A stretch of 64,000 nt of DNA. Source: Alphaproteobacteria bacterium (GTDB lineage: Bacteria; Pseudomonadota; Alphaproteobacteria; UBA1280; UBA6503). Every line of letters starts with the position of its first letter. The first letter of the stretch is position 1. The stretch is from positions 37,318 to 101,317 of the forward strand of contig JAJFIW010000036.1 in assembly GCA_021774615.1 (NCBI GenBank). Reading direction: 5' to 3'. Shown in pieces: positions 24,867 to 43,504 of this stretch. The notes under the pieces were generated by a model that saw only the letters and a program-made list of their open reading frames with translations, searched no databases and was not told the DNA's origin. The translations under genes and the position numbers were made by a program.

Positions 24867-25118
24867 ATGGCACAGACAACGCACGCACAAATAGTAGATA
24901 AAATCTGCGAAGAATTAAAAAGTATTGATACGGGTATCAAAATTGACCTGTCGGCTGATACTAACATGACTACTGATATCAAAGTAGACTCGTTGGATGT
25001 TATGGAATTAGTATTTGCATTAGAAGAAGCTTTTGATGCATCTATCCCAGTTAATGACTTAAGCGATGTATTTACAATTGGTGAGCTTGCATCACTAGTA
25101 CAAAAAAACATGGACTAA
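24867..25118 (+). CDS. Acyl carrier protein (dedicated, cluster-associated)
   Basis: 83 aa with the phosphopantetheine attachment motif DSLDVMELVFALEEAF. Confidence 0.85.
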   Translation: MAQTTHAQIVDKICEELKSIDTGIKIDLSADTNMTTDIKVDSLDVMELVFALEEAFDASIPVNDLSDVFTIGELASLVQKNMD

Positions 25119-25146: not shown

Positions 25147-26337
25147 ATGGCAGACTTGCTCGATAAATTCCGCTCATTAAAAGAAATCCACACCAACATT
25201 GTAGAAATGGTGGGGCGTGACCCTTTGGGTGTACCATTCGAAAAAATGATATCACCAACCGAAGCGGTTATCGGCGGTAAAAATTGCGTATTGCTTGGTT
25301 CCAATAACTACCTTGGGCTTACATTCTACCAAGAGGGGATGGACGCTGCAAAGGCTGCTATTGATAAATCTGGAACTGGTACAACAGGCTCGCGGATGGC
25401 AAATGGTAGCTATAGTGGCCATATGGCTTTAGAAAGAAAGTTGGCCGAATTTTATGGTAAAAAACATGCCATGCTATTTACTACGGGCTATCAGGCTAAT
25501 GTAGGCTTTATTTCGGCTATTTCTGGCAAAGATGACTATATCTTTATCGATGCCGACAGCCACGCTAGTATTTATGATGGCTGTAAATTGGGTGATGGCA
25601 CAGTTATTCGCTTTCGCCACAATAATGCTGACGACTTAGCTCGCCGTTTGAAAAAACTCCCTGCAGATTCTAATAAAATAGTAATTGTTGAGGGCATATA
25701 CTCTATGTCGGGCGACCGTGCGCCATTAAAAGAGCTAGTTCGTGTAGCAAAAGAGTATAACGCCTACATCATGGTAGACGAAGCACACTCCTTAGGTGTT
25801 CTGGGCGAAAATGGTCGAGGGCTACTTGAAGAAGTAGGCGTTGAGGATGATGTAGACTTTGTGTTGGGTACATTCTCTAAAAGTGTTGGTACGATTGGCG
25901 GTTTTTGTGTGTCTAACCACCCTGAAATCGAAACAATGCGCTTTGCGTCACGTGCTTATATGTTTACAGCATCACCACCACCATCTATCGTGGCATCAGC
26001 AAGCGCAACCTTAGATTATATCCGCGATACACCAGAACTGCGTAAAAAACTGTGGGCAAACACCGATGTTGTCTACGATTCTTTAAAAGCTATGGGCTAT
26101 AAAGTAGGGGTAGAGAAAACCCCAGTTATAGGCATCCAAATGCCAAGCCTTGAAGAAGGCATTAGGGTTTGGAATGTATTGTTCGATAACGGTGTATATG
26201 TAAACATGGCATTACCACCAGCAATACCAATGGGTAAATGCTTACTCCGCTGCTCACCATCGGCAGCCCATACCCCCGAGCAACTCGAGCAAGTTGTGGC
26301 TGCATTTACAAAGGCACAACCTGCGGTCGCTGCTTAA
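25147..26337 (+). CDS. Alpha-oxoamine synthase; serine palmitoyltransferase-like (PLP-dependent aminotransferase class II)
   Basis: 396 aa with the PLP-lysine motif GTFSKSVGTIGG plus typical AOS blocks (GSNNYLGL; DEAHSLGVLG). Confidence 0.8.
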   Translation: MADLLDKFRSLKEIHTNIVEMVGRDPLGVPFEKMISPTEAVIGGKNCVLLGSNNYLGLTFYQEGMDAAKAAIDKSGTGTTGSRMANGSYSGHMALERKLAEFYGKKHAMLFTTGYQANVGFISAISGKDDYIFIDADSHASIYDGCKLGDGTVIRFRHNNADDLARRLKKLPADSNKIVIVEGIYSMSGDRAPLKELVRVAKEYNAYIMVDEAHSLGVLGENGRGLLEEVGVEDDVDFVLGTFSKSVGTIGGFCVSNHPEIETMRFASRAYMFTASPPPSIVASASATLDYIRDTPELRKKLWANTDVVYDSLKAMGYKVGVEKTPVIGIQMPSLEEGIRVWNVLFDNGVYVNMALPPAIPMGKCLLRCSPSAAHTPEQLEQVVAAFTKAQPAVAA

Positions 26338-26364: not shown

Positions 26365-27078
26365 ATGTTTAAAATATTAGTTCTATCCTTATTTATTATT
26401 ACTCCATATTCTGCAACTGCAGAAACTATAGATGCTTTCATAAGTAAAATAGAGAAGGCATTCTCCATAGCGGATGTAGAAAATCGCAAACAAGCTATGC
26501 TAGAGCTTTTTTATTTACCAAATGCAGATGGAGAAGATATTAAAATGTACCATGATAGGATTATTGATAAACGCCTTGGTAAGCTAGAAGCTCCTAAATT
26601 GGGTACGGAGGCTTTACCCGAAGACTTTGTAATGAGCTATGTTAATAATGGTATAGAGTTTAAAGCCACGCTTACTCCTGTGGGTATGTTAACTTTTAAT
26701 GAAAAAATGAAAATACCATACGGTAAAAAACCAGATGGTAATTTTGCACTTGCTGGAATGCTTAAGCACAACGTAATAGCTAATGCCCCAGAAGACGTTG
26801 TATTAAACATGATGGTTATGGGTATGGGTAACCCTCCCGTTAGATTTTCTGGCTACTGTGATGTTATGCAAGCCAATAATAAAACTAGGCGCATGACATT
26901 CGAAGACAATAATAATGGTAATAATACATTGGCTACATGGGCGCAATATGTACACTCGTGCGAAGTAAAAAAACTATCTACACATGGTACACTTCAACTT
27001 AGAATTACCGCTGGGGATACTGATATATTTAAAAAAGTTATTTCTGAGAAAGACAGAAAAATTATTTACCAGCACTAA
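26365..27078 (+). CDS. Secreted/periplasmic hypothetical protein
   Basis: Signal peptide MFKILVLSLFIITPYSATA. No recognised domain. Confidence 0.4.
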   Translation: MFKILVLSLFIITPYSATAETIDAFISKIEKAFSIADVENRKQAMLELFYLPNADGEDIKMYHDRIIDKRLGKLEAPKLGTEALPEDFVMSYVNNGIEFKATLTPVGMLTFNEKMKIPYGKKPDGNFALAGMLKHNVIANAPEDVVLNMMVMGMGNPPVRFSGYCDVMQANNKTRRMTFEDNNNGNNTLATWAQYVHSCEVKKLSTHGTLQLRITAGDTDIFKKVISEKDRKIIYQH

Positions 27079-27998
27079 CCCACAATCTTGCGAGTAAGGA
27101 CTTTATAAAGCAATGGCCAGCCACCGATTAGGGGGTGACGGCGTTGGAAGTCTGTGGCTTCAATGCGTTCGCCGGTGTGGCGTTCGATTTTCCAGATTAT
27201 ATAGTCTACAGCGCCATCAAAAGTGAGCGGGGCTTTTATAAGGCGTAGTAGTGTTACCAGCTTACCGCTTAAGCGCCTAATTGGTGTGTTTAGTTTTTTA
27301 AATAGATGCTGCTTAGAGCTAGACTGTATAGCAAACTTGTTGTTATCTTCTTTTCTTAATAACTTAGGGTTATTTTGGGCAAAAAGTTCGGTGCATTTAT
27401 CAAACCGTGTTGGCGATGCATCGTATATAGAGTTTTGCCTTGCTTTTGACTCGCTCCGCAATTCTGACCCATATGTGTCGGCCATGCCTGTGGTCCAGAT
27501 TTCTTGTGGGGTAACTGTGCCTTGTAATAGTGGGATACTGCGGCGGTGGAATGTTTCTACTGCCATTGCTAAAGAGTCAATAACTTTGTTTTCTCTATGT
27601 TTGCCACGTGCCCAAACAAGCCTGCAAGGCTGCGAGAACCTTGCCCATATACTTGGTGCAACACTCCAACCATTAGCAGCTCTTTCAAACTGCTTAACAG
27701 TCATAACGGCGTATTTACAACGTAGAGTTTTGCCATCATGGGAAATTTCTTTGTAGTAAACATTGGGTGGTAAAATAGCACCCCAAAAACGGTGGCTTAG
27801 TGGTGAGGATGCAGCTTTAAAGCTATCGACTAGTAAGTAAAAATCCATAACAGTGTCGTCGGCTAGTTCTTTCCAAAGGCCAGAACCATAAAACATAACT
27901 GCTGCTGCACCATTATTGCCTTTATAGATGCTTTCAGCCATTGCGATAACTTCGCCTTTGCAAGGGGTAAGGCATTCGTGCTTTATAAGGTCGCGCAT
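27075..27998 (-). CDS. Nucleotidyltransferase-fold protein, possibly Tam41/Mmp37-like (phosphatidate cytidylyltransferase-like)
   Basis: Minimal NTase motif (YGSGLWKELADDTVMDFYLLVD: GS...D.D). The size and helical C-terminal half resemble the eukaryotic mitochondrial CDP-DAG synthase Tam41. This is a low-confidence family call. Confidence 0.35.
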   Translation of the reverse strand: MRDLIKHECLTPCKGEVIAMAESIYKGNNGAAAVMFYGSGLWKELADDTVMDFYLLVDSFKAASSPLSHRFWGAILPPNVYYKEISHDGKTLRCKYAVMTVKQFERAANGWSVAPSIWARFSQPCRLVWARGKHRENKVIDSLAMAVETFHRRSIPLLQGTVTPQEIWTTGMADTYGSELRSESKARQNSIYDASPTRFDKCTELFAQNNPKLLRKEDNNKFAIQSSSKQHLFKKLNTPIRRLSGKLVTLLRLIKAPLTFDGAVDYIIWKIERHTGERIEATDFQRRHPLIGGWPLLYKVLTRKIVG

Positions 27999-28006
27999 AA
28001 AAAAGG

Positions 28007-28969
28007 CTAGGCCTTTCCTAGAGCAAAAGTAAATGGCTTTTCTATACTAACCGAGATTGGGGCATCTTCAGATGCTTGGTACATTTCGCCGTCAAGTGTC
28101 CACTCTCCATCAAAACTTAGGTCGCAACTATCTGTACGGAAACCAATGCAGCCGTCATCTTTTTTTGGGTCAAGAGGGTGTTTACCGAAAAGTAAGGTTG
28201 GTAAATGGTGGATAAACCGTTTGTATGGGTTAAATACACCCATAACTGACATCCCACCTTTACCTTGTTGTTGGGGCTTTATGCCTAGCAGCAGTTTATC
28301 TAGCGATGTAATTGTGAGAAATACAGTATCTACCTTTTGGGTTGTAGAGTTGTGTTTAATAGTTGTAGGTGTTGGTTTTAATAATAAATCTTCTGTTGGT
28401 TTTCCTTGTGCTAAGCGCCATAGCATAATTGCCATAGTTACGCTTTCGCTAAAAGTGCTATTAAAACCACGGTCATGGAGGTTTTTACGTGTTTTATGGA
28501 TAACCCTAGGGATGGCAGATGTACCAAGGAAAAAACCGTATAATGGAGTTTTTCTAGTGTCTGATTTTACTGCAATTGGAGCACGAGAAACAGTTTTAAC
28601 AATACCTTCATCAGCCCATTGCAAAAGGTCTAGTATAGGTTGGTTCGAGTCGCCACTAAAACCAACATCTTTATGGGCCATATTGGTTGTGCCTGCATCA
28701 TAAAGGGCTATGGTAGGCTCTTTTTTGAATAGTTTTTTTGCCCGTAGCTCTGTCATAACGGTATCTAGTGTGCCATCGCCACCAATAATTGCTAGGTAAT
28801 CTGCATTTTTTGCTGCTATATCTTCGAGAGCTTGGGGGATGTCATCTACCGAGTTTGTTTGTTGAAAAACAATGTTCTTAGCATTGCGGACGCTATCTAT
28901 ATGGCTATGGATAGCTCCACGCCTTTTTTTACCGCTATTAGGGTTGTAAATAACACCAATAATTGCCAC
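28007..28969 (-). CDS. Lipid kinase of the DAGK_cat family (diacylglycerol/sphingosine/ceramide kinase-like)
   Basis: N-terminus IGVIYNPNSGKKR... and the catalytic GGDGT motif (IIGGDGTLDTV). This is the YegS/BmrU/LCB5-type fold. Confidence 0.7.
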   Translation of the reverse strand: MAIIGVIYNPNSGKKRRGAIHSHIDSVRNAKNIVFQQTNSVDDIPQALEDIAAKNADYLAIIGGDGTLDTVMTELRAKKLFKKEPTIALYDAGTTNMAHKDVGFSGDSNQPILDLLQWADEGIVKTVSRAPIAVKSDTRKTPLYGFFLGTSAIPRVIHKTRKNLHDRGFNSTFSESVTMAIMLWRLAQGKPTEDLLLKPTPTTIKHNSTTQKVDTVFLTITSLDKLLLGIKPQQQGKGGMSVMGVFNPYKRFIHHLPTLLFGKHPLDPKKDDGCIGFRTDSCDLSFDGEWTLDGEMYQASEDAPISVSIEKPFTFALGKA

Positions 28970-28973
28970 AGGT

Positions 28974-30146
28974 TTACCTCTCTAACCATGATATAACACG
29001 GCCACCTGTTAAAACTTTAAATTCAGCCTGTATAATCTGTAGTAAGTGTACCAGTAATGAGGCAAAAGTCCAACCAGCAATTGCCCAAACAGCCCAGTCT
29101 GGGCGGTTTATAACAACACAAGCTGTCATTAGCAGCATGTTTGGGTTGCGACGGGCTGTAATTAGCCTGAAGAAACTATCAAACTTACGCCAAATATGCA
29201 TATGGATATGGAAACGAACAATAAAGTACCCCTCTAATATGCGTTGTGCCACATAGCCACCAACAATAACTATAAGTAGCATATTAAGAGTTTCTTTTGG
29301 TAACTCCATGCCCACATGTACTAGCCCGTAAGCCCAAGCTACATACCAAAATGGTGGGTGGATAAGGTCTGTACCGTGATCTAGGATATTCCCTATTTTT
29401 GACGATGTAAATGTAACCCTAGCAAGCTTGCCGTCTACAGTGTCAAGGAATGTCATAATCCAGCCAGCTAGTAGACCTAATGCATATTGCCCTTCCCAAA
29501 AGAGGAATAGAGCATAAAACATTAGAATTATGCCAGCAATAGTAACCATATTAGGGCTTATATTTGCTTTAATACACCATTTAGTTACAACCATTGCAGG
29601 GCGAGGCCAAAAATATTTAGTAACAAAGTCTGTTACACCTTTATATGTTCCCATGAAAATTCGGTGTTCTGTTTGTTTAAGAGTCTCATCATCAAGCTTC
29701 AAACAGTAAGGAGCTTCTTTTTTGCGCAAATCCGAGTCAAAGTTACCGCCAATAGTAGCAGTTGTTTTGGCCTCCAACCCTGTAGGGATATCATTTTTGC
29801 CTTGTAGCCATTTTATTGCAGCAGCAGCTTGTTTTGGTATGGTGTGCACTGCTAGCGGGACATTATTGTCTGTCAAAACTGTTTGGGTACTGTCGATAAG
29901 ACCAGATAAAATAGGTTTGTCGTATGCATAGTCTGTCATTATTAGAATAATGGTATTATTACTGGGTACAGTGTTTAAATCTGATTCTTCAATGACTTCT
30001 ATATTCATATTGCTAAATATGCGGCGTAGGCGTTCAGCACCACTTAGCCCCCAAACTTTAGGGGAAATGTTAGTGCCACGGTTCAATAAAACCACCGTAA
30101 TGGCATTTAGTTGTGATGGTTGTTTGACATTTGCAGTATTTTTCAT
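28974..30146 (-). CDS. CDP-alcohol phosphatidyltransferase-family membrane enzyme with an extra N-terminal soluble domain (fusion)
   Basis: Exact CDP-OH PT signature DG(x2)AR(x8)G(x3)D(x3)D (DTVDGKLARVTFTSSKIGNILDHGTD) in the membrane-embedded C-terminal half. The N-terminal ~150 aa soluble domain may be a cytidylyltransferase-like module, as in archaeal IPCT/DIPPS fusions. Confidence 0.75.
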   Translation of the reverse strand: MKNTANVKQPSQLNAITVVLLNRGTNISPKVWGLSGAERLRRIFSNMNIEVIEESDLNTVPSNNTIILIMTDYAYDKPILSGLIDSTQTVLTDNNVPLAVHTIPKQAAAAIKWLQGKNDIPTGLEAKTTATIGGNFDSDLRKKEAPYCLKLDDETLKQTEHRIFMGTYKGVTDFVTKYFWPRPAMVVTKWCIKANISPNMVTIAGIILMFYALFLFWEGQYALGLLAGWIMTFLDTVDGKLARVTFTSSKIGNILDHGTDLIHPPFWYVAWAYGLVHVGMELPKETLNMLLIVIVGGYVAQRILEGYFIVRFHIHMHIWRKFDSFFRLITARRNPNMLLMTACVVINRPDWAVWAIAGWTFASLLVHLLQIIQAEFKVLTGGRVISWLER

Positions 30147-31130: not shown

Positions 31131-31901
31131 ATGAAAGCTATTATTCTTAGTGCAGGGCAAGGCACACGATTATTACCAATGACAGAACAAACACCTAAGT
31201 GTTTACTGCCTTTAGCTGGTGGTACAAATATACTTCGTTGGCAGCTAGACCAACTAGAAGAAGCTGGTATTAAAGAAACTATCGTAGTAACAGGTTTTCA
31301 TGCTGATAAAGTTTGCACAGAGCTTGCAATGCCGCGAGCCTTCATGAAAACAAAAGCAGTTTATAACCCATTTTTTAAAGTAGCCGATAACCTTGGTAGT
31401 GTTTGGATTGCACGTCAAGAGATGACAGAAGACTTCATCCTACTTAATGGTGATACTCTATTTACAACCGATGTTGTACAGCGCCTTATTGCTAATGCTC
31501 ACCAACCAATAACAGTTACAGTTGCTTATAAAGACAGATACGACTCTGATGACATGAAAGTTACCTTAAAAGACGAAGGTATTGTTCATTCAATCGGTAA
31601 AACTATTGATATGAGCAATGTTGATGCTGAGTCCATCGGTATGATTATGTTCCGTAACCATGGTAGTAAAACATTCCGTGAAGCTGTAGAAACAGTAATG
31701 ATGGATCAAACATCATTAAAAAGATATTATCTGTCTGTAATCGATATGCTTGCAAAAGGCATTACTATCGGTACAGCAGAAGCACTACAAGAAGAGTGGT
31801 GCGAGGTTGACTTCCCGCTTGACTTTGAAAGAGCGCAAAAAGCCATTACTAACTGGCAGTCTATGATGAGCCCTTCCATTCAAGGTGCTGTCACAGCTTA
31901 G
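31131..31901 (+). CDS. Nucleotidyltransferase (NTP_transferase family; LicC/phospho-sugar or phospho-alcohol cytidylyl/nucleotidyltransferase-like)
   Basis: N-terminal signature MKAIILSAGQGTRLLPMTEQTPKCLLPL. Confidence 0.7.
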   Translation: MKAIILSAGQGTRLLPMTEQTPKCLLPLAGGTNILRWQLDQLEEAGIKETIVVTGFHADKVCTELAMPRAFMKTKAVYNPFFKVADNLGSVWIARQEMTEDFILLNGDTLFTTDVVQRLIANAHQPITVTVAYKDRYDSDDMKVTLKDEGIVHSIGKTIDMSNVDAESIGMIMFRNHGSKTFREAVETVMMDQTSLKRYYLSVIDMLAKGITIGTAEALQEEWCEVDFPLDFERAQKAITNWQSMMSPSIQGAVTA

Positions 31902-31909
31902 TTTAGTTA

Positions 31910-32710
31910 CTATTGACGACTATTAAAGATCTGGCGCACTAGCGTCAGGTCTTCTTTTTTATCTACATCAATAGCAGCTTCAGGAGTTTGCATAAGCTTA
32001 AGGTAAATGTTGCACTTTGTTAGTTTATTAAGGCGTTTTATAATATTTTCTCTGCGTAGACTGCCCATCATATAGCGTAATAAAACAATAAAGCCCACAA
32101 CAAAAGCTAATTTTATTGGGGTTTTACGGCTGTTCTCAGCTTTTTGCCAGAAATTAGCTACATTGGCTGATTTTGGCTGATTAAATAAAAATAGGTTACA
32201 ACCCCCAATCGCACCATCAGCAAAGCTCAGGCGGGTACGTTTAACTTGTGGGTAGGCATTTTCTACTATATCTACTTTGGCTATTGCTGCTGTAAAATCA
32301 GCCTCTAAGGTTGCTTTATCTTGAATAAACTCGTCAAGGATCTGGTGGTCTAATAAGGGGTGGTCGGCGGTTGTAACTAAAACAGGTTTTTTTATGTCTT
32401 TAAGCCCCATAATAATGCTTTTACAAGGCGTTGTTCCCGTTTCTATAATGCGTATCTTGCCTTTATTTAGTAACTCGTATAGAAGGGGAGCTTCTTCTGA
32501 CATCGCAAACTCTTTTGAGATACTAACCGTTATACCAGCAGTTTTTGGCCATGTATTTAAAGTATGTAATACACGGTCTATCATTGGTGTGCCTGCAATA
32601 TCTACAAATGCTTTGCACAGCTTACCTTCGCCTTTGGCTATAGGGTCGCCACTTTGGCGGCTACCTGCAAGTAATAAAATATTAAATTTTTGCTCTGTTT
32701 CTTCGGGCAT
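31910..32710 (-). CDS. MobA-like/IspD-like nucleotidyltransferase (NTP_transf_3 family)
   Basis: N-terminus ILLLAGSRQSGDPIAKGEGKLCKAFVDIAGTPMIDRVL, matching the glycine-rich loop of the small cytidylyl/guanylyltransferase family. Confidence 0.5.
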   Translation of the reverse strand: MPEETEQKFNILLLAGSRQSGDPIAKGEGKLCKAFVDIAGTPMIDRVLHTLNTWPKTAGITVSISKEFAMSEEAPLLYELLNKGKIRIIETGTTPCKSIIMGLKDIKKPVLVTTADHPLLDHQILDEFIQDKATLEADFTAAIAKVDIVENAYPQVKRTRLSFADGAIGGCNLFLFNQPKSANVANFWQKAENSRKTPIKLAFVVGFIVLLRYMMGSLRRENIIKRLNKLTKCNIYLKLMQTPEAAIDVDKKEDLTLVRQIFNSRQ

Positions 32711-32712
32711 AA

Positions 32713-33840
32713 TTAGGCAATACCTTTTTCATATATACGATATTTTTTATTAAGGGTACCGCCAACAAACTCGATGATTTTGCTCATTGGTTTGTTGTCT
32801 TCTAGGATCCATGACAGCTCAACTTGTTCAAAACTTTTCTTTTGCCCAATTTCATGGATATGCACAACTAGTGCTGCAGCCAGTGCACCGCCTAGGGTTG
32901 TTCCTTGGTGCTCTTTACGAATGCCCATTAAAACAACACGCCCACCTTTTGTACCACGAACCTTTAGACGCCAAAGCAGCTTAAGCCACCCAAAAGGGAA
33001 CAAGCTTCCTTTTAAGTCTTTAATAGCTTCGTTTACATCTGGTAAGGCAATAATCATTCCTGCGGATTTACCATCAACCGAAATAATTCGTGCGAGATCT
33101 GGATCTATAAGTGGCTTTAGGTTTTTGGCCATGTAGCTTATTTCTTCTGCAGTCATTGGGGTGAAACCCCAGTTATTTGACCAGGCATCGTTAAAAATAT
33201 CCATAACTAGTTTTAGCTCTTGGTCTAAATTTTTAACATCTATTGCTCGCTCTTGTACTTTAGGGTTACGCATAGCATATTTTGCCATACGCTTTGCATT
33301 AGCAGGGAAAGGGTTTGCAACCTCAAGGTTATAAGCAAAAAGATCTTGAACTTTTTTATAACCATCTTTTTCTAGAGATTTTGCATACCAAGGCTTTGCA
33401 TAGTTCATTAGTAGGCGTGCAGAGCTATCAAAGCCTTCCACTAACAAACCAACCTCATCGTTAATAGATAAGCTATAAGGCCCCGTTACTTTTTTTATAC
33501 CTTGCCCTCTAAGCCACTCTTCAGCTTCGATTAGTAGTGCTCTTAGTGTGGTTTCGTCTGCGGCTTCTAAGCAACCAAAGTGGCCAGTGTTCTTAGAGTC
33601 TTCCTCTTGGTGGTCAACCTGTGCACTAATCCGCCCTACAGGCTTTCCTTCAGGGTTATAAGCAACAAATAATTGGCAATCAGCATGGTCAAAAAAGGGG
33701 TTTTTCTTTGGGTTTAAATGTTCTTTACGTTCCATTGTAAGTTGCTGCACGTAGTTTTCATCGTCCTGATATAAATAATTAGGAACATTGATAAAATCAG
33801 TCAGACATTTATGGCTATTTGCAGAACAAACCTTAATCAT
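32713..33840 (-). CDS. GNAT-like N-acyltransferase, candidate bacterial ceramide synthase (bCerS-like)
   Basis: 375 aa with a C-terminal GNAT-type acyl-CoA binding motif (VVLMGIRKEHQGTTLGGALAAAL). The gene is co-located with the Spt/ACP/reductase genes and a sphingolipid-type hydroxylase. The functional call is by context. Confidence 0.4.
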   Translation of the reverse strand: MIKVCSANSHKCLTDFINVPNYLYQDDENYVQQLTMERKEHLNPKKNPFFDHADCQLFVAYNPEGKPVGRISAQVDHQEEDSKNTGHFGCLEAADETTLRALLIEAEEWLRGQGIKKVTGPYSLSINDEVGLLVEGFDSSARLLMNYAKPWYAKSLEKDGYKKVQDLFAYNLEVANPFPANAKRMAKYAMRNPKVQERAIDVKNLDQELKLVMDIFNDAWSNNWGFTPMTAEEISYMAKNLKPLIDPDLARIISVDGKSAGMIIALPDVNEAIKDLKGSLFPFGWLKLLWRLKVRGTKGGRVVLMGIRKEHQGTTLGGALAAALVVHIHEIGQKKSFEQVELSWILEDNKPMSKIIEFVGGTLNKKYRIYEKGIA

Positions 33841-34625
33841 TAACTAGCAAGCTTTCTTGTTGGTTTTTTGCGGTCAACACCTTCTATGGCAGATCTCTCT
33901 TCATCTAAGTCTGGAGTTAGTCTTGCGACCCATGGGTACAGTCTAACTTCTTCGCCAGTGTAGCCAAGGTTAAATACAGTTGGGCTTTTACCACCTTGGT
34001 CTTTTGCTGATGGTTTAAATGTACCAAATAGCATGTCTGGCCAAAAGGTAATAATACCAAAGTTAACATTTTCGTTGAAAAAATGGTGCTGTAGGTGCCA
34101 ACGCTTAATTTTTCTGAAAAATGCTGTTTTTGGCTCGTAGTTTAAATGTTGCCCACAATGGCAAAACTCGTAAATACAAGTCATGATGATGCCAGCACTA
34201 ATTGCGGTTGCCATACCGGCCAACCCACCGATAGCATAGCCAATAGGTGATGTTGCAATAAAAATTGTAGGTAGTGTTGTGTACAGCGCGCCAAAAAGTA
34301 CTTTAAGGTCGTAAGGGTCGCGGTGGTGGTCAAAGTGGATACGTTTCCAAGCGGTTGCTGTTATCTTAGAGCGATACAGGAACTGACCATGCAGTATATA
34401 GCGGTGTAGCAAATACCAAACCATCGGGTAGGCGACTGCTACTGCTAGTATTATATAACCAGTAGTGCTTGCTTCAATCCCCCAATGCCATGCCAAATAG
34501 CCGCTAACTGCTGCCAAAACTAGGTAAATATGAATATCTAAGTACATAAAAAATGCTACAAAAAGGTCTTTAAGGTTCATTTCGTCAAGACGATAGTCTT
34601 GTTTCCAAATGTTAAGTGCTTTCAT
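33840..34625 (-). CDS. Fatty acid hydroxylase superfamily membrane enzyme (sphingolipid/sterol desaturase-hydroxylase-like)
   Basis: Di-iron histidine boxes HFDHHRDPYD, HCGQHLNY and HLQHHFF, with 3-4 TM helices. Confidence 0.75.
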   Translation of the reverse strand: MKALNIWKQDYRLDEMNLKDLFVAFFMYLDIHIYLVLAAVSGYLAWHWGIEASTTGYIILAVAVAYPMVWYLLHRYILHGQFLYRSKITATAWKRIHFDHHRDPYDLKVLFGALYTTLPTIFIATSPIGYAIGGLAGMATAISAGIIMTCIYEFCHCGQHLNYEPKTAFFRKIKRWHLQHHFFNENVNFGIITFWPDMLFGTFKPSAKDQGGKSPTVFNLGYTGEEVRLYPWVARLTPDLDEERSAIEGVDRKKPTRKLAS

Positions 34626-34768
34626 AATAACTACCTATACTGTTTTCTATAGTTAGAAAATACTCCTTACGAGTAAAAAGTCAAATCTGAAAAGTAGATG
34701 TTGGAGTCATTATTTATTAAGTGGTACTATATGGGTAATAATATTTCTAAGAAAGAAAGATCATTACC

Positions 34769-35998
34769 ATGTTCAAGATACCTGCAACTGCTGCCGATTT
34801 TCATGCAGAATTAACAGATCTACAGCAAAAATTCCAAGCGATGGAGCCAGAGCTAGAGCTGACCATCCGTGATCCTGAAATGGGGGTAGAAGGCTATGTT
34901 GTAGTGTGGAATACAGGCATTAGCCTTGGCGGGGCTTTACCAGCTTGTGGTAAAGGCGGAACACGAGTTACTAAGGACTTAAAGCTAGATGATGTTAAAC
35001 GCCTAGCACGAGCTATGGCTGAGAAAAATGCAGCAGCAGGCTTGCCTTTAGGCGGGGCAAAGTCTGGGTTGCGCCTTGATCCGACATCTCCAGATTACGA
35101 AAAAAAATATCGCCGTTTTGTCGAACTCTGTAAGCCAATTTTACATGAGCATGGCGGTATCTTTGGTGGTTTCGGCTATGATGTGGGGTGTATCCCGCCT
35201 AAAAATGCAATTTGGGCATGCGACCAACTAAAAAGTAACCGTAGCTTTACAGGTAAACCTGTAGATATGGGCGGTACAGACTATGACAAAGAGGGGATAG
35301 CAGGTCTTGGGGTTGCTGTTGCTGCTAAAACCCTTATTGAAGAAAATGGCAATACTGCCCAAGGCAGTACGTTCGCAGTACAAGGAGTAGGCGCAATGGG
35401 CGCAGCTATTATCCGTTACTTTGTTGATTATGGCGGAGTTTTAAAATACCTATCCGATCCTAAATACGGCGGAACATGGGGCATAAATAACACTCCATCA
35501 GCTGATCTTATCGACGCACTAGCCCATCAGAAAAAAGATATAGCTATCGACTTACTAGCAAAAGAGGCTACAAAAATATCAGACGACTGCACCGAAGCTC
35601 TCTATGCAGATGTTGATGTGCTATTCCCTAGTGCTATGGAAGATGTTTTGCATAAAGGTAATGCAGCTAAAGTTAAAGCTAAATTTATGGTAGAGGGGGC
35701 TAATAACCCAACCACAGCCGAAGCACACCAAATCTTGTTTGATAAAGGCATTAAAGCCGTGCCAGACATTATTTCTAACCCTGGTGGGATTATTGCAGCA
35801 TTTGTTGAGCTTACCTCAAAAGCAACCTCAGAAGAAAATGTAAAAACACACATTAACGTGACAAACGCTAAAGAAATGACCATTACCAAGGTATCAGAAA
35901 ATACTAAAAAATTAGTTAATATAGTGAACACTCTAAAAGTGCGCCCAGACCTAGCAGGCGACTATATGGCATACCGTAATATTTTTTATGGGCTGTAA
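34769..35998 (+). CDS. Glu/Leu/Phe/Val-family amino acid dehydrogenase (glutamate dehydrogenase-like)
   Basis: Catalytic Lys region GLPLGGAKSG and Rossmann motif FAVQGVGAMGAA. Confidence 0.75.
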   Translation: MFKIPATAADFHAELTDLQQKFQAMEPELELTIRDPEMGVEGYVVVWNTGISLGGALPACGKGGTRVTKDLKLDDVKRLARAMAEKNAAAGLPLGGAKSGLRLDPTSPDYEKKYRRFVELCKPILHEHGGIFGGFGYDVGCIPPKNAIWACDQLKSNRSFTGKPVDMGGTDYDKEGIAGLGVAVAAKTLIEENGNTAQGSTFAVQGVGAMGAAIIRYFVDYGGVLKYLSDPKYGGTWGINNTPSADLIDALAHQKKDIAIDLLAKEATKISDDCTEALYADVDVLFPSAMEDVLHKGNAAKVKAKFMVEGANNPTTAEAHQILFDKGIKAVPDIISNPGGIIAAFVELTSKATSEENVKTHINVTNAKEMTITKVSENTKKLVNIVNTLKVRPDLAGDYMAYRNIFYGL

Positions 35999-36051: not shown

Positions 36052-37434
36052 TTAAGCAAGTGCTTGCTCTTTTTCTTTACTTTTTTGTGGTTTGTTATTC
36101 TCGCGATAATTACTTACTTGCGCTTCTATTTCTTGCGCGTCATCAACAACAACCATTGCTGCATGTACGACACTTCCATCCTTAAGCTTACTTGAGTGAG
36201 TTACAGTTTTTAGCCCTGTCTCATTTTGTATTTTTTCGGCTATGGCTTCTGCACCTTCTCTAGTTTCGGATGTAACATATACACTGGGGTGTTCTTCCCC
36301 TTGGATCCCATGACTAGTATAAGCTGAATGGCCTCTCGGTAATTTATTGTCTTGAATTACGCTTGAAACTTTATTTGCTGCACGAAGTTGTGCTCTGTAC
36401 TGTTCGTCATTAACCTGTTCATTTTTAACTAATGTTGGGTTTTCCTCATTTAAAACCTGAGGGTCATAATTATCAGGATATACTTTTGGGGTATTAACAG
36501 ATTTTGTTAGCGTCTCTTCTCGACGCACTAGATCTTCATCTGTTTTAGCTGATAGCTTATGCATAAGCTTGTCATTCTTATCTTTTGCTTCAAGGTAGTT
36601 ACCTATTTGTACAGTTACTTCTCGTGGGTCTTCTACAATTAGCATCGCCATGTGCTGAGTTGTACCGTCTTCAAGTTTTTTGGATGCTGTGACAAAATTT
36701 AAGCCAGTTTGTTCTTTTAGGTCATTTGCTACTGCTTGAGCAGCTTCTTGAGTATCCCCACAGTTAATACGTACATTAGGGTGTTTTGCACCACCATTAC
36801 CACCGTCAATGCTGCAAGATAGGTGGCTTGGTAGCAAACCACCACTCTTATTTCTTAGTAAGTTGCCAACATCCTGTGCTGCTGTCATTTTTTCTTTATA
36901 TCTTGTAAGAGATACCTCTTTACAAGGGTTTGGCGAGTCTTCAACAGCATAGTCTTTGCCAGTTTTTCTTTCTTCGTTATAACTAGCATATTTACTGCCC
37001 TCAACCATTTTATGACCTTTTGGGGGCTTAGATATAGGTATGCCTAATTCTTTAAATTGTTGCTCAATCTCGTACAGCTCTTTCTCCCAATATGCAGTAT
37101 CTTTTCCGTCTGCATGTACTAAAAGACCTTCTTCAGAGTTTGGGTTTATCCGTAAATCATTTTCGCCTCTAATCGGAACATCAACTACTGGGGAATCATC
37201 TTTTTCTGTGACTATACGTCCTAGAACAATGCCATAGCCTTTAGCTTCATCACCTTTACCTATTTTAAAACCAAAGTGGTAGCCTTTAAATACTCTTTTC
37301 TCACCTGGCTTGGCAGTCCTAAATTTTTCACTATCATATACAAACCCGCTACCTGTATAGTCACAATCAGGTAATTGACCACTTGCTTCCAATTGGTTGG
37401 TTATATCTTCTCTTGTATATTTAGATTCTACCAT
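36052..37434 (-). CDS. Hypothetical protein with an internal tandem duplication of a ~60-aa domain (effector-like)
   Basis: 460 aa. Two homologous modules: CGDTQEAAQAVANDLKEQTGLNFVTASKKLEDGTTQHMAMLIVEDPREVTVQIGNYLE and SETREGAEAIAEKIQNETGLKTVTHSSKLKDGSVVHAAMVVVDDAQEIEAQVSNYRE. No known catalytic motif. Confidence 0.5.
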   Translation of the reverse strand: MVESKYTREDITNQLEASGQLPDCDYTGSGFVYDSEKFRTAKPGEKRVFKGYHFGFKIGKGDEAKGYGIVLGRIVTEKDDSPVVDVPIRGENDLRINPNSEEGLLVHADGKDTAYWEKELYEIEQQFKELGIPISKPPKGHKMVEGSKYASYNEERKTGKDYAVEDSPNPCKEVSLTRYKEKMTAAQDVGNLLRNKSGGLLPSHLSCSIDGGNGGAKHPNVRINCGDTQEAAQAVANDLKEQTGLNFVTASKKLEDGTTQHMAMLIVEDPREVTVQIGNYLEAKDKNDKLMHKLSAKTDEDLVRREETLTKSVNTPKVYPDNYDPQVLNEENPTLVKNEQVNDEQYRAQLRAANKVSSVIQDNKLPRGHSAYTSHGIQGEEHPSVYVTSETREGAEAIAEKIQNETGLKTVTHSSKLKDGSVVHAAMVVVDDAQEIEAQVSNYRENNKPQKSKEKEQALA

Positions 37435-38883: not shown

Positions 38884-39975
38884 CTACTTAGAAAAGCGTG
38901 ACTCTTTCCATAATGTATAGGTAATAAGGGCTATACCAAATATTATCGATGGCAGCCATACGGCCAAAGTAGGGGGGAACTCGCCACCTTCACCAAAGGA
39001 TAAGGCAATTCGCTCGCCTACAAAAAATAAAAACCCGATTATAATAATACCTGCACTAAGCACTGTTTTATTTGTGTGCCGAGGGCTCATAAATAAAAGT
39101 GGGACTGCGATTAAGATCATAATTAAAGTGCTGAATGGCTGGGAGAACCTACGTTGCAGCCATGTATCATAGTAATAGTTGCGGCTATCAGTTAGGTGGT
39201 TGGCTGTTGTTAGTGCTAATAGCTCGGGAAGGGTCATTTCATCAATTTTTTTATTGAAAACAGCTAAATCTTCTGGGGTAGAATTTAAATTTATAGGGTG
39301 TTCTTTAAAGCTAGAGATTTTGCCCGAATCTAAGTTTTTCTCGGTTACGTCGTGTAATATCCATTTAGAATTTGCATCGTAAGTAGCTTTACTTGCAGTG
39401 GTGTATGTTTCTAGCCTACCTAGTTTATCACGCTCAACTAATTTAATATTGAGGAGAGTACTTCCAGTATCATTTGCATCTTCAGCAAATAGGATAAGCT
39501 CATCAATTGTAAACCAAGCAGGGTAGCGGCTGATATTTGTCTGAGCTGTTACTTCTCTATAGTCGTTATTAGCCCAGATGCGCAGTTTCTCTGATGTATC
39601 GAGTACTACCGTGTTAAGAAATATAAAATGTAACGTTGCTAAAAATATACCGCCACCAATAAATACGCCTACAATACGTAGCAAACGTATGCCCGAACTC
39701 ATTATGGCGGTTATTTCTAGGTGGCTGTGGAACCGACTATATACAGACATTGCAGCTAACATCCCAGCCATAGGAATAACCAACGAGATTATCTGTGGTA
39801 AACGTAGTATGGCATATAGCCCTGTGGCCTCAAAAATTGGCATGCCTCCACCGAGGATACTATCGCTCTGGGCTAGAATATCAAACACTAAAAAAAGCAA
39901 AGCTAATACCAATGAAAATGCCAAAGAGGCATTAATAAAATGCTTAAGTAGATAGTATCGTAAAATTGAAGACAC
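38884..39975 (-). CDS. lptG: LPS export ABC transporter permease LptG
   Basis: 363 aa YjgP/YjgQ-family permease with a periplasmic beta-jellyroll insert, adjacent to lptF. Confidence 0.85.
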   Translation of the reverse strand: MSSILRYYLLKHFINASLAFSLVLALLFLVFDILAQSDSILGGGMPIFEATGLYAILRLPQIISLVIPMAGMLAAMSVYSRFHSHLEITAIMSSGIRLLRIVGVFIGGGIFLATLHFIFLNTVVLDTSEKLRIWANNDYREVTAQTNISRYPAWFTIDELILFAEDANDTGSTLLNIKLVERDKLGRLETYTTASKATYDANSKWILHDVTEKNLDSGKISSFKEHPINLNSTPEDLAVFNKKIDEMTLPELLALTTANHLTDSRNYYYDTWLQRRFSQPFSTLIMILIAVPLLFMSPRHTNKTVLSAGIIIIGFLFFVGERIALSFGEGGEFPPTLAVWLPSIIFGIALITYTLWKESRFSK

Positions 39976-39995
39976 AGCTTAAACTTCTTTTCTAG

Positions 39996-41153
39996 TTAGT
40001 GTTTACGTTTACGTGGGCGTTTAAAGAAAGACATAACATATCTATAAGGTGGTGCATCCATCCAGACCGCAATTAGTGTTGCGGTGATAATAGCCAGAAT
40101 AGACAAAGGTGTCCACAACCCTGTCCATGTAGACAAACTACCGAGTGCGGCAAAGGCTTCGCCGAAACCGAGTATTTTCTCGTACAGAATAAGAATAACT
40201 ACCCCCAAACCAATCCCATAAGCACGCCCCGTACGCCCAGAACCAACTAAGGCTAAGGGTATCGCTAGTAATGCTAGTATTGGGACTGATAATACTAAAA
40301 CAATACGGCTATGTAACTCGGCTTTCATTTCAAGGAATGGTGCTTTGGTTAAAACACCTTGTACTCCTTCTGAGAACAATTCTACCAAAGTCATCTCGCG
40401 GCTTTCTTGCCCACGGTTGCCATATTCTTCGATGTTGTCTAGTGGGGGGCTCCAGTAAAATTGGCTAAAGCTAATGGTAGCGGCTGTATTATTAGTGCTA
40501 CTTTCCCGAACCATTTTACCATTTTTTAATAACAGGGTAAAATCGCTCTCGGGGTTGGCAGATTCGGTAACTCGCACTGCTTCTTGTGCGGTTATAATAG
40601 TACGGTTGCCGTTATCGTTGGTTGAGGCAAAGAAACCAGTAAAGAACTTACCACCTTGGCTAACTGTTTCTGCCCGTAGGGTAATGTCACTCCCGAGGCT
40701 TTCAAAAATACCAGGGCGAAGGTTGGTTAGCATTTGCGATTTTGTAAGCTCCCAAACAGACAAATGATAAGCATAACGGGCGTAAGGTTGCACAAAACCA
40801 ATTAAAATAAGCATTAAAATAGTAACTACTGTAGCTAACGCCATAACTGGACGGATGATTTGCTCTAGCGATAGTCCAGTTGAGAAAATAGCAGTTAATT
40901 CAGAGTCTTGTTGTAACTTCCTGATGCTAATCATCAGTGCAATAAATAATGCTGCTGGCAACGCTGTACCAAGGTAATGGGGGATAAGATACCACAACAG
41001 TTTAAAGGCACTTATAATAGGTGTGCCTTCTTCTGTAACCAATTGCACCAAGCGCATTAGCCGCTCTAAAACAAGTGTTATTAAAATAATAAATAACGCC
41101 ATAATAAACGGCGGGGTTACTCGGCGCAGCAGATATACTGTTAATTGCGACAT
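39996..41153 (-). CDS. lptF: LPS export ABC transporter permease LptF
   Basis: 385 aa YjgP/YjgQ family with N-terminus MSQLTVYLLRRVTPPFIMALF. Confidence 0.85.
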   Translation of the reverse strand: MSQLTVYLLRRVTPPFIMALFIILITLVLERLMRLVQLVTEEGTPIISAFKLLWYLIPHYLGTALPAALFIALMISIRKLQQDSELTAIFSTGLSLEQIIRPVMALATVVTILMLILIGFVQPYARYAYHLSVWELTKSQMLTNLRPGIFESLGSDITLRAETVSQGGKFFTGFFASTNDNGNRTIITAQEAVRVTESANPESDFTLLLKNGKMVRESSTNNTAATISFSQFYWSPPLDNIEEYGNRGQESREMTLVELFSEGVQGVLTKAPFLEMKAELHSRIVLVLSVPILALLAIPLALVGSGRTGRAYGIGLGVVILILYEKILGFGEAFAALGSLSTWTGLWTPLSILAIITATLIAVWMDAPPYRYVMSFFKRPRKRKH

Positions 41154-41168: not shown

Positions 41169-41600
41169 TTATTTATCTATAAAGCTCTTAAGTAGAGCTG
41201 TAACTTCTAATAATGCTTTGTCATCTAGTGTAACACCTTCGGCCATGTCTGGTGTTTTGGGCCATCCGTGGTCTATTGCTGCTACAGTTCCTAATTGTCG
41301 TACACCTTCATACCTAGGGAGTACATGAAAATGTACATGTGGGTCAACCATCATTAGCATTAAATAGTTTATTTTTTCAAAGTCTACAGCATCTTTTAAT
41401 GCTTTTTCTAGGTCAGCAGTTACTACGCTTAGCTCGCACATTGCTTCTGCTGAGATGTTGGCAAAGGATGTTGCTTCTTCTTTACAAATTAGCACCAATG
41501 CACCAGCAGTTGCTTGCTTGCGGCGGGTTTGGATTGTCCAATGGTCGTATTCTTTAATAAGACTATTTGGGTAATCAAATGTTGTCATGGTTTTGTTCAT
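41169..41600 (-). CDS. HIT-family (histidine triad) nucleotide hydrolase/transferase
   Basis: HxHxHxx motif HVHFHVLPRY. Confidence 0.7.
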   Translation of the reverse strand: MNKTMTTFDYPNSLIKEYDHWTIQTRRKQATAGALVLICKEEATSFANISAEAMCELSVVTADLEKALKDAVDFEKINYLMLMMVDPHVHFHVLPRYEGVRQLGTVAAIDHGWPKTPDMAEGVTLDDKALLEVTALLKSFIDK

Positions 41601-41689
41601 TATGGAGCCAACTATTTTTTTTAATATCGCGTTATATTGCTGTTTATGCTATAAGTATGAGTTGCTTCAATCAATGGGAAAATAACAAA

Positions 41690-42331
41690 ATGTACTTACA
41701 AAAGCATATTTTCGCAATATTAGTCTTTGCTCTGTTGTTTTTGGGTTCTACTCCAGTAAATTCTGCAGACAATAACGAGGTTAAGTATTTTTATGATATT
41801 TTAAAAGATGGCCATAAAATAGGCGTGTACAACTTTATTGTAACCGAAAATGGTACAGAAAAAACAATCCACGCTGGGATGAAAATAAAAGTTAAAGTAT
41901 TTTTTGTTACCGCATATAAAGCTAGCCATTCTCGTACAGAAATTTATAAAAATGACAAACTAATATCTATTGATGGTTCTTCTATATATAACGGTAAAGA
42001 CTATAAAATTAGCTATGCGCCAGACAGAACGTTAGTAACCAATGGCAATAAAATGCTATTGGAGAAACGAGGTGTTACGGTTAGCCCTTTTATACAAAAC
42101 GATGATGATGAAGCCTTTATTATTACTGAAAAAGGTAAAGCAAAACTTGCAACTTTTAAAAAAGTTGGCGAAGAAATAATTAAAGTGTCGGGTAAAAAGA
42201 CTACTGCTTTACACTATAAGGTTACTGGCTCTGTAGAAAGGGATTTATGGTACGATAAAAATGGAATACTTCTTACTCTATCATACCTTAAAGATGGGTC
42301 TGTTATTAGTTTTAGGCGCCATTCTTTGTAA
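41690..42331 (+). CDS. Secreted hypothetical protein
   Basis: Signal peptide MYLQKHIFAILVFALLFLGSTPVNSA. Start chosen at 41690 (GGGA RBS) rather than the ORF extension from 41567, which overlaps the HIT gene. Confidence 0.45.
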   Translation: MYLQKHIFAILVFALLFLGSTPVNSADNNEVKYFYDILKDGHKIGVYNFIVTENGTEKTIHAGMKIKVKVFFVTAYKASHSRTEIYKNDKLISIDGSSIYNGKDYKISYAPDRTLVTNGNKMLLEKRGVTVSPFIQNDDDEAFIITEKGKAKLATFKKVGEEIIKVSGKKTTALHYKVTGSVERDLWYDKNGILLTLSYLKDGSVISFRRHSL

Positions 42332-42382: not shown

Positions 42383-43504
42383 ATGCTAAAGCTATCTTTA
42401 AGGTTACATATATTATTTGCAGCATTAATTATTTGTATGCCAACCCAAGCAATTGCGCAAAGACCACCGATGGGTATGGGTGGTGGTGTACCTGTTGTAG
42501 TCACGCCTGTAGTAGAAAACCAATGGGTAGAAGAAATTGAAGCTCTTGGTACATTGCGTGCGCGCGAACAGGTAAAATTAACTGCCACTGTTTCTGACAA
42601 GGTTTCAGCAATTCACTTTACCGATGGGCAATGGGTAGAAAAGGGCGCTATTGTCGTTGAAATGGATAGTGGTGAGGAAAAAGCCGAACTAGAAGCAGCC
42701 CTTTCAGCCTTAAGAGAAGCAAAAAAACAGCACCAACGATCAAGAAAACTTGTTAAAAAAGGTGCTACATCGCAATCTGTTGCCGATGAACACCGCCGTG
42801 TGTTTGAAATATCTAAAGCACAAGTTGGGGTAGCAAAAGCAAAACTGCAAGACCATGTTATCCATGCGCCGTTTTCAGGCGTGCTAGGGTTGCGGGAGGT
42901 AAGCCCTGGGGCATATTTAAACTCTGGCGATACTATTACAACATTAACCGATGCATCTACTATGCGTTTAGACTTTACCCTTCCAGAGGTTCATTTAGCG
43001 AGCCTTACCGTAGGACAAACAGTAAAAGTAATAACTAAAGCTTATGATGGCCGTATTTTCCAAGGGCAAATTTCTGCCGTTGATAACCATGTGGATAATG
43101 TAACCAGAGCTATTGGTGTTCGTGCGCTATTATCTAATGAAGAAAACTTATTAAAAGCCGGGATGTTGATGACTGTTAATATTAAAAAAGCAGCAGAGCC
43201 TGTTTTGGTATTACCTGAAGGCTCTTTAGTGCCAGAAAGTGCCAGCAATTTTGTATATGTAGTAGACCCAACAGCAAAGCCAGCGGTTGCTGTAAAAACC
43301 GAAGTGAAAATAGGCCGTCGCCAAGCCGGAATCGTTGAGATTTTGTCGGGAGTTAATGTGGGGCAAATGGTTGTGTCGCACGGTACGCTAAAGCTTGCTA
43401 ATGGTCGCCCTGTTATGATTATTGCAACTCAAGAACAGGGTGTTTCTATGGCAGATATTCTGGAGAAAATGAACAAAGCAAGCCAAAGTAGGGCTCATAA
43501 ATAA
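42383..43504 (+). CDS. RND efflux periplasmic adaptor (membrane fusion protein)
   Basis: Signal peptide plus HlyD/biotinyl-lipoyl-like barrel motifs. The stop overlaps the start of the RND pump (ATGA junction). Confidence 0.85.
   Translation: MLKLSLRLHILFAALIICMPTQAIAQRPPMGMGGGVPVVVTPVVENQWVEEIEALGTLRAREQVKLTATVSDKVSAIHFTDGQWVEKGAIVVEMDSGEEKAELEAALSALREAKKQHQRSRKLVKKGATSQSVADEHRRVFEISKAQVGVAKAKLQDHVIHAPFSGVLGLREVSPGAYLNSGDTITTLTDASTMRLDFTLPEVHLASLTVGQTVKVITKAYDGRIFQGQISAVDNHVDNVTRAIGVRALLSNEENLLKAGMLMTVNIKKAAEPVLVLPEGSLVPESASNFVYVVDPTAKPAVAVKTEVKIGRRQAGIVEILSGVNVGQMVVSHGTLKLANGRPVMIIATQEQGVSMADILEKMNKASQSRAHK

Follow-up and report, generated by a model that had tools for sequence, protein, structure and literature searches.

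An FA2H/Scs7-like hydroxylase gene coupled to a presumed bacterial ceramide synthase gene in an alphaproteobacterial sphingolipid cluster

Bacterial sphingolipid synthesis was worked out only between 2021 and 2024, and the bacterial ceramide synthase (bCerS) together with its gene cluster is thus already known. The locus studied here lies on a stretch of 64,000 nucleotides (nt; the window) of contig JAJFIW010000036.1 (GCA_021774615.1) from an Alphaproteobacteria bacterium, and positions are given in window numbering. On the minus strand a 261-amino-acid (aa) open reading frame (ORF) of the FA_hydroxylase family at 33840-34625 is located upstream of a 375-aa GNAT-type ORF at 32713-33840. We consider it probable that the operon yields bCerS together with a ceramide N-acyl 2-hydroxylase; the latter would act on C-2 of the amide-linked chain while the lipid has yet to be flipped, reduced and given its head group.

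The coupled gene pair and its recurrence

A preliminary description of this DNA had paired the two ORFs, and the ORF list places both exactly where that description had them and in the same orientation. The 1-nt overlap which it reported is also real: the TAA stop of the hydroxylase gene and the ATG start of the GNAT gene share one base. The resulting TAATG junction is a translational-coupling signature for the two genes. The features of the operon are as follows:

34626 to 34768, no strand: divergent intergenic region upstream of the hydroxylase gene, likely operon promoter (consensus match only)
33840 to 34625, minus strand: FA2H/Scs7-like integral-membrane di-metal hydroxylase, 261 aa (PF04116, Scs7p match, AlphaFold2 model)
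33838 to 33842, minus strand: TAATG junction (...AGT TAATG ATT...; sequence reading)
32713 to 33840, minus strand: bCerS, ortholog of CC_1154/CCNA_01212 by position, 375 aa, tandem-GNAT (Acetyltransf_1, AlphaFold2 model, synteny)
31910 to 32710, minus strand: MobA-like NTP transferase (CC_1153-like), third gene of the operon (Pfam NTP_transf_3, IspD)

The MobA-like gene begins 2 nt past the GNAT stop. With the hydroxylase and bCerS genes in first and second place, the three make up a hydroxylase-bCerS-nucleotidyltransferase operon, which lies within a sphingolipid cluster of the Caulobacter type. The intergenic region contains the sequence TTGACT-16-TATTTT (minus strand, 34684-34657), which is a consensus match only, the number of such matches not being above the shuffled expectation. 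A scan of the operon for promoters and terminators likewise gave counts no higher than expected from shuffled sequence.

To describe how often the two genes stand together we used two sets of loci. The first consists of 80 species-level bCerS loci, obtained by a scan of one genome per species and annotated by blastp with the window proteins. The hydroxylase gene lies directly upstream and co-oriented in 19 of these 80 loci, which belong to Alphaproteobacteria (including Euryhalocaulis, Kiloniellales, Rhizomicrobium, Azospirillum, Geminicoccaceae, Acetobacteraceae and Roseomonas) and to three Nitrospirales/Nitrospirota metagenome-assembled genomes (MAGs). The CC_1153-like gene directly follows bCerS in 56 of the 80. 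The second set comprises 80 metagenomic hydroxylase loci, 75 of which extend 300 nt or more in the downstream direction, and in 64 of these 75 bCerS follows immediately on the same strand. In most of the rest of these 75 loci genes for Spt, CerR, LptF/G paralogs or the kinase of the cluster are present all the same, and 4 of the 80 show no sphingolipid gene within a downstream flank of roughly 1-5 kb. Three further homologs with ~50% identity, including the one of the cultured Limimonas halophila, all have the order hydroxylase, ~380-aa protein, NTP_transf_3. Other cultured bacteria that carry the operon are Ferruginivarius sediminum and Marinimicrococcus flavescens (L014).

We also encountered a natural fusion of 635 aa (P0012), in which a complete hydroxylase, C-terminal extension included, is joined to a complete bCerS; the extension is retained as the link between the two. 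The fusion is represented by two cluster members, P0012 and P0241, on contigs of 22,319 and 12,414 bases, and it sits in the same type of sphingolipid cluster. Long 'fused' ORFs in five high-GC loci (L017, L019, L027, L040 and L087) were rejected as ORF-calling artefacts; where the hydroxylase is present there, it ends at its own stop. With 19 of 80 and 64 of 75 loci and a fused ORF the pairing is far beyond chance.

A PF04116 hydroxylase coupled or fused to bCerS was not described in the literature that we searched, which included few subscription papers. Per that literature both kinds of enzyme are known and their tight, widely conserved pairing is not previously characterised. The arrangement is an uncharacterised variant of a known pathway and not a new kind of system.

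Family and fold of the two proteins

The 261-aa protein matches Pfam FA_hydroxylase (PF04116) with 66.3 bits against a cutoff of 31, and no FA_desaturase-type domain or cytochrome b5 domain was found in it by Pfam. The preliminary description had listed three His boxes. All three are present, but the boxes number four, as the first one (HRYILH at 74) had been overlooked: H74-RYIL-H79, H97-FD-HH101, H156-CGQ-H160 and H177-LQ-HH181. The first motif is thus of the form HX4H (Sur2-type enzymes are marked by three His motifs with HX3H as the first), and all four boxes are invariant across 50 hydroxylase homologs. The only sequence match in the PDB was yeast Scs7p, which 2-hydroxylates the very-long-chain fatty acid of ceramide; the E-value was 2.8e-9 when the sequence was used alone and 9.9e-14 with a profile of the 50-sequence family. 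In the alignment the motifs HX4H, HX2HH, HX3H and HX2HH are all paired with motifs of Scs7p, and so is the FG(I/V)T...FGT tail. Just before the third box Y152/E153, which are invariant in the 50 homologs, are paired with Y322/D323 of Scs7p, residues that we take to be substrate determinants.

The AlphaFold2 model of the hydroxylase (predicted local distance difference test, pLDDT, of 94.5) shows a four-helix architecture with 4 transmembrane (TM) helices, the protein starting ~20 residues before TM1. In a Foldseek search against the PDB only Scs7p chains matched this model at about E ≤ 0.001, with a best E-value of 2e-4 and TM-scores of 0.54-0.58. The Scs7p alignment stops at query residue 204, and past it we observed a conserved, family-specific C-terminal extension of ~50 residues (~205-250, or ~205-261 when taken to the end of the protein, window 33840-34010). 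It is modelled at high confidence, has the pattern KS.TVFNLGYT..EV.RYPWVARLT and contains S214, T216, V217, G221, Y222, P231 and V233 as residues invariant in the 50 homologs. The extension could be a docking surface.

We take the 261-aa protein most likely to be an FA2H/Scs7-type monooxygenase with four helices and a His-box di-metal centre, for which hydroxylation at C-2 and a ceramide substrate would be expected. By likeness to Scs7p the active site and both termini would face the cytoplasm; with cytosolic termini the fusion is topologically consistent with a cytoplasmic bCerS. Scs7p was the sole match among solved structures, and all His boxes aligned with it. A grouping of the hydroxylase with carotenoid or sterol enzymes, which would have spoken against the initial assignment, is not apparent. 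The absence of the N-terminal cytochrome b5 domain of the yeast and animal enzymes does not count against the family, since plant FAH1/2 also lack it (PMC10002949) and the domain is hence not defining for the catalytic family.

With Scs7p, FA2H and FAH1-2 the hydroxylase shares PF04116, the four His boxes, the four-TM fold and the sphingolipid context, and with Scs7p in particular the Y-(D/E) pair before the third His box. It differs from Scs7p by an identity of only ~20%, the missing cytochrome b5 and the ~50-residue C-terminal extension. Unlike the yeast, human and plant enzymes it belongs to bacteria, is encoded in an operon and in some cases is joined to the ceramide synthase in one protein. 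A myxobacterial FA2H-like fatty acid alpha-hydroxylase (Ring, Schwar and Bode 2009) is tied to sphingolipid formation in the account given in PMC10002949; going by that description, it resembles the window enzyme as a bacterial, cytochrome b5-less FA2H homolog. Two myxobacterial bCerS loci, Sorangium L055 and Polyangiaceae L077, have no such hydroxylase gene within 10 kb, so the operon coupling is not a feature of these two loci. It is possible that the alphaproteobacterial hydroxylase clade is the bacterial sister or the source of eukaryotic FA2H.

For the 375-aa protein the sequence signal is much fainter. The GNAT-like motif noted earlier at its C-terminal end is real, although by sequence it is marginal (Pfam Acetyltransf_1 at residues 212-340 scores 21.6 bits, the cutoff being 20.7). 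The AlphaFold2 model (pLDDT 92) has a tandem-GNAT fold and matches the structures of MAB_4324, MshD and glucosamine N-acetyltransferase with E-values down to 5e-16; a PDB search with the sequence gave no match. At E ≤ 10 NCBIfam returned no match for the GNAT protein, the hydroxylase or two domain-less cluster proteins; for the hydroxylase this has little weight, it being unchecked whether NCBIfam holds models for CrtZ, OlsE or sterol enzymes. The maximum Kyte-Doolittle score over 19 residues is 1.24 for the GNAT protein, so that no TM segment is predicted, and this fits the published location of bCerS as a cytoplasmic peripheral membrane protein (PMC11087976).

In Caulobacter CC_1162-1165 and CC_1154 make dihydroceramide, CC_1154 being the ceramide N-acyltransferase (CerS/bCerS) that is genetically required for ceramide formation, CC_1158-1161, CC_1152 and CC_1153 build ceramide (di)phosphoglycerate, and CC_1155 and CC_1156 are LptG2 and LptF2 (PMC11324152). 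We judged orthology to CC_1154 by position and by the homolog of the uncultured Caulobacter sp. L072. L072 carries 12 consecutive genes in the published order from CC_1164 to CC_1153: CerR, acyl carrier protein (ACP), Spt, a 307-aa-type protein (unk307), kinase, CDP-alcohol transferase, phosphoesterase, HIT, LptF2, LptG2, GNAT and nucleotidyltransferase. The gene in its CC_1154 slot is 43-44% identical to the window GNAT over residues 2-374 (E 3e-96). The same gene order was observed in Phenylobacterium L029, Brevundimonas L069 and the unclassified Pseudomonadota MAG L086, and partly rearranged versions in Azorhizophilus paspali L062 and Nitrosomonas L083 and L084.

A protein search with the GNAT sequence returned more than 6,600 relatives, which among the 120 matches listed are full length and 45-59% identical. 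The alignment of homologs is collinear along the entire length, N-terminal half included. We also ran tblastn with the GNAT against annotated plasmid and chromid records, in which a homolog on a Klebsiella plasmid adjoins genes for an acyl-AMP ligase, an epimerase, ACP and Spt. The E. coli homolog YghO (42% identical, full length) has the same four neighbours. The homolog of Sphingomonas parapaucimobilis adjoins CerR, ACP, Spt and LptF/G, that of Roseomonas marmotae lies within a full CPG2-type cluster, and in Streptomyces the genes form an Spt-GNAT-epimerase (CerR) operon. Homologs beside spt and cerR occur in five phyla or classes, among them Alpha- and Gammaproteobacteria, Nitrospirales and Streptomyces. 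Spt, CerR, AasR or ACP lies within the available flanks of 52 of the 80 species-level loci, and in the window the genes for spt, cerR, acp and the acyl-ACP synthetase are within 11 kb of the GNAT gene.

By its sequence relatives and its position the 375-aa protein is a bCerS ortholog, with a presumed ceramide synthase activity. The homolog in the CC_1154 slot and the complete ceramide cluster support the bCerS-like acyltransferase that had been proposed. By context its place is not among the aminoglycoside or peptide acetyltransferases, and the homology extends through the N-terminal half.

There is no NCBIfam model for the bCerS family. The Roseomonas marmotae homolog is annotated 'dATP pyrophosphohydrolase', and at NCBI bCerS orthologs bear this name in L002 (7983-9134), P0055 and P0058 (Roseomonas, Pelagibius, Kiloniellaceae). 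The label looks like a propagated misannotation.

Probable substrate and order of the hydroxylation

According to the reading that we favour bCerS, as a soluble or peripheral cytoplasmic protein, would work at the cytoplasmic face and transfer the acyl chain of an activated fatty acid to the amino group of the 3-ketosphinganine made by Spt (or of sphinganine). Next to it, the hydroxylase in the membrane would then hydroxylate C-2 of the amide-linked chain, and only afterwards would the lipid be flipped, reduced and provided with its phospho head group, giving 2-hydroxyacyl ceramide phosphoglycerate-type lipids. The C-2 regiochemistry, ceramide rather than a free or activated fatty acid as the substrate, and a physical complex of both proteins are parts of this scheme that we infer. 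It is conceivable, if somewhat doubtful, that the two proteins form a physical unit at the inner membrane, on its cytoplasmic side, in which the hydroxylase anchors the otherwise peripheral bCerS and hydroxylates nascent 3-keto-ceramide before the flip to the periplasm.

In Caulobacter the hydroxylase's proposed job is assigned to another protein. Caulobacter ceramide phosphoglycerates occur in hydroxylated and non-hydroxylated forms, the hydroxyl group is placed presumptively on the N-acyl chain and the unlinked gene CC_0202, of the DesA family, is credited with adding it (PMC11324152). The window hydroxylase and CC_0202 would thus share a role, that of hydroxylating the amide-linked acyl chain, although their families differ (PF04116 and FA_desaturase type, respectively). 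A DesA-like gene ('fatty acid desaturase') adjoins bCerS, where the hydroxylase gene lies in the window, in Sphingomonas L003 (6762-7856) and Kordiimonas L061 (8764-9870) and lies inside the cluster in L056 (15780-16919); none of the three loci also has a PF04116 hydroxylase. Conversely, tblastn with the bCerS-adjacent Sphingomonas desaturase gave no match in the 64-kb window. The presence of one or the other gene, and never of both, at these three loci and in the window suggests non-orthologous replacement, and the two families, PF04116 and DesA, may each bring about this modification of ceramide, the one in place of the other. The acyl-chain hydroxyl of Caulobacter is needed for polymyxin sensitivity. 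For Sphingomonas the use of a P450 for hydroxylation has been described (PMC10002949, PMC11324152).

The same end product would result if the 2-hydroxylase acted before bCerS, on the free fatty acid or on the acyl-ACP or acyl-CoA donor. This order would suit the sole established in vitro assay for FA2H, which uses free fatty acids (PMC10002949), the dedicated ACP and acyl-ACP synthetase of the cluster and the position of the hydroxylase as the first gene of the operon and the first domain of the fusion. However, gene order says little on reaction order, the Scs7p structure has been read as fitting ceramide and not acyl-CoA (PMC10002949), and Y152/E153 are paired with Y322/D323 of Scs7p, so that we regard hydroxylation ahead of acylation as unlikely. 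Quite improbable in our view is a hydroxylase that modifies the long-chain base, either as a Sur2/SBH-like C4-hydroxylase producing phytoceramide or as a desaturase. Such enzymes share the Pfam superfamily PF04116, the position of the hydroxyl group is unreadable from sequence and the cluster context suits any ceramide-modifying activity equally. Yet the four-motif His pattern aligns with Scs7p along its length, and the family profile, when compared with sequences not drawn from a database and hence as a lead only, detected human FA2H with 44 bits and CrtZ with 4 bits but left Sur2 undetected; furthermore the extra hydroxyl of Caulobacter is placed presumptively on the N-acyl chain. Of the two products which had been suggested originally, the 2-hydroxy-acyl ceramide is clearly the more likely one and a phytoceramide-like (C4) product the less likely.

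A pairing unrelated to sphingolipids would mean that the GNAT acylates some other amine, for instance in an amino-acid lipid, and that the hydroxylase is OlsE-like or acts on lipid A or carotenoids. The names of the homologs at NCBI ('dATP pyrophosphohydrolase', 'N-acetyltransferase', 'sterol desaturase family') are uninformative or wrong and leave room for this, as do the four metagenomic hydroxylase loci with no sphingolipid gene in their short flanks. We nevertheless hold it to be very improbable given the positional orthology of the GNAT to CC_1154, which is required for ceramide formation (PMC11324152), its linkage to spt and cerR across phyla, the 64 of 75 adjacent pairs and the natural fusion. 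That neither protein matches NCBIfam points the same way, weakly for the reason given above.

Several observations weigh against our preferred reading of a bCerS coupled to a ceramide N-acyl 2-hydroxylase. Scs7p was the only PF04116 structure returned by any PDB search, and the structural match thus cannot separate FA2H-type from Sur2-type enzymes. The identity to Scs7p is low, its D323 is replaced by E in the hydroxylase family, and the comparison with FA2H, Sur2 and CrtZ sequences from outside a database was the sole one of its kind. No electron-transfer partner is encoded near the hydroxylase. The hydroxylase is missing from 61 of the 80 bCerS loci and is hence accessory. The likeness of the GNAT to bCerS is one of position and of the L072 homolog and not of an alignment with CCNA_01212. 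The replacement of DesA by PF04116 was observed in flanks of at most 10 kb, and Caulobacter's own DesA gene is unlinked. Finally, the hydroxylase clade and the source organism are known here from genes and predicted structures.

The surrounding cluster and wider meaning

The ceramide/phosphosphingolipid cluster spans about 22.1-42.3 kb of the window. In addition to the operon it contains the following genes:

22108 to 23889, plus strand: acyl-AMP ligase/acyl-ACP synthetase, AasR-like (Pfam AMP-binding, synteny)
23886 to 24836, plus strand: NAD-dependent epimerase/dehydratase-family reductase, CerR-like (Pfam Epimerase 82 bits, synteny)
24867 to 25118, plus strand: dedicated acyl carrier protein, AcpR-like, 83 aa (Pfam PP-binding)
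25147 to 26337, plus strand: serine palmitoyltransferase, Spt (NCBIfam NF047599 equivalog, 596.8 bits, cutoff 500)
27075 to 27998, minus strand: 307-aa protein in the CC_1161 position (no Pfam or NCBIfam match; beside the kinase in most related loci)
28007 to 28969, minus strand: DAGK_cat lipid kinase in the CC_1160 position, presumed ceramide kinase (Pfam 54.8 bits, synteny)
28974 to 30146, minus strand: CDP-alcohol phosphatidyltransferase, CC_1159-like (Pfam CDP-OH_P_transf, synteny, PMC11324152)
30185 to 31039, plus strand: metallophosphoesterase, CC_1158-like (Pfam Metallophos, synteny)
31131 to 31901, plus strand: nucleotidyltransferase, CC_1152-like (Pfam NTP_transferase, NTP_transf_3; kept in related clusters)
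38884 to 41153, minus strand: LptG and LptF paralogs, CC_1155/CC_1156-like, proposed sphingolipid transport permeases (LptF_LptG 232 and 221 bits, synteny, PMC11324152)
41169 to 41600, minus strand: HIT-family protein in the CC_1157 position (Pfam HIT)
41567 to 42331, plus strand: DUF6134 protein at the cluster edge (Pfam DUF6134)

This gene set is the Caulobacter CC_1152-CC_1165 set reported in PMC11324152, and the nearest known system is the CC_1152-CC_1168 cluster for ceramide and ceramide (di)phosphoglycerate. In both clusters bCerS is directly followed by the CC_1153-like gene and the GNAT has no TM segment. They differ in that the window has a PF04116 gene immediately upstream of bCerS and coupled to it, whereas the published Caulobacter cluster has none (PMC11324152), and in that the lptF/G paralogs of the window are located ~4 kb away from the operon. 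The intervening genes encode an amino-acid dehydrogenase of the ELFV family (plus strand, 34769-35998) and a domain-less protein of 460 aa (minus strand, 36052-37434), the latter with two segments near its C-terminus that look similar by eye (...GLNFVTASKKLEDGTTQHMAMLIVED... and ...GLKTVTHSSKLKDGSVVHAAMVVVDD...). As neither gene occurs in any related cluster examined, the pair looks like an insertion, and the dehydrogenase, absent from all related loci, was rejected as a part of the system. In a marine MAG labelled Magnetococcales (L088, 59% identity) the cluster is the same but lacks the ELFV insertion.

The HIT and DUF6134 neighbours recur in L004 and L088. Next to DUF6134 we observed an RND efflux pair, a membrane-fusion protein (42383-43504) and an AcrB-family pump (43504-46614), and DUF6134 and the RND pair also flank the cluster in the marine MAG (L088 1191-6113). 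These genes might conceivably serve the export of sphingolipids. Genes resembling LptC2 or a flippase did not turn up in the window, no search having been aimed at them, and scans of the window for tRNAs and Rfam families gave no matches. Between spt and the CC_1161-like gene lies a 237-aa ORF (26365-27078) with a hydrophobic N-terminus, for which we found no Pfam or NCBIfam match; none of the 80 related genome loci has a counterpart of it. With respect to NCBIfam the Spt scores above the cutoff of the 'Betaproteobacteria-type' model (597 vs 500) and below that of the 'Alphaproteobacteria-type' model (518 vs 670), although the closest relatives of the cluster are alphaproteobacterial MAGs.

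The bCerS homologs of two enterobacteria were observed alongside. In E. coli PN43 (NZ_MG591698.1, L005; 2346-10125, hits H31-H38) the lptF/lptG paralogs, spt, acp, a CerR-like epimerase, the acyl-AMP ligase and yghO form a cluster which adjoins glcC. At least 80% of this 7.8-kb cluster is present in 4059 of 5426 complete E. coli genomes, and RefSeq names the spt gene while YghO is still 'protein YghO'. YghO resembles the window GNAT in its full-length identity and its neighbours; unlike the window, the lptF-to-yghO stretch and the flanks examined hold no hydroxylase or head-group genes. On a conjugative IncFIB plasmid of Klebsiella michiganensis (NZ_CP106839.1, L001; 3164-9125) we found Spt, ACP, a CerR-like gene, the acyl-AMP ligase and a bCerS homolog. 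Ceramide synthesis genes thus occur on mobile DNA.

An FA2H/Scs7-like hydroxylase coupled to the ceramide synthase extends over many alphaproteobacterial, three Nitrospirales/Nitrospirota and numerous metagenomic loci. The hydroxylase-bCerS pair hence provides a simple marker by which hydroxylated ceramides can be predicted from the genomes of environmental bacteria. Human FA2H is a disease gene, and the true substrate of FA2H is still debated; the bacterial hydroxylase provides a tractable model of this family without cytochrome b5. The fusion is topological evidence for a hydroxylation on the cytoplasmic side, next to the acylation. If the two enzymes do form a unit, the debated order and place of the bacterial ceramide steps would be fixed, and unrelated di-iron families, PF04116 here and DesA in Caulobacter and Sphingomonas, would have been recruited independently for the same modification.

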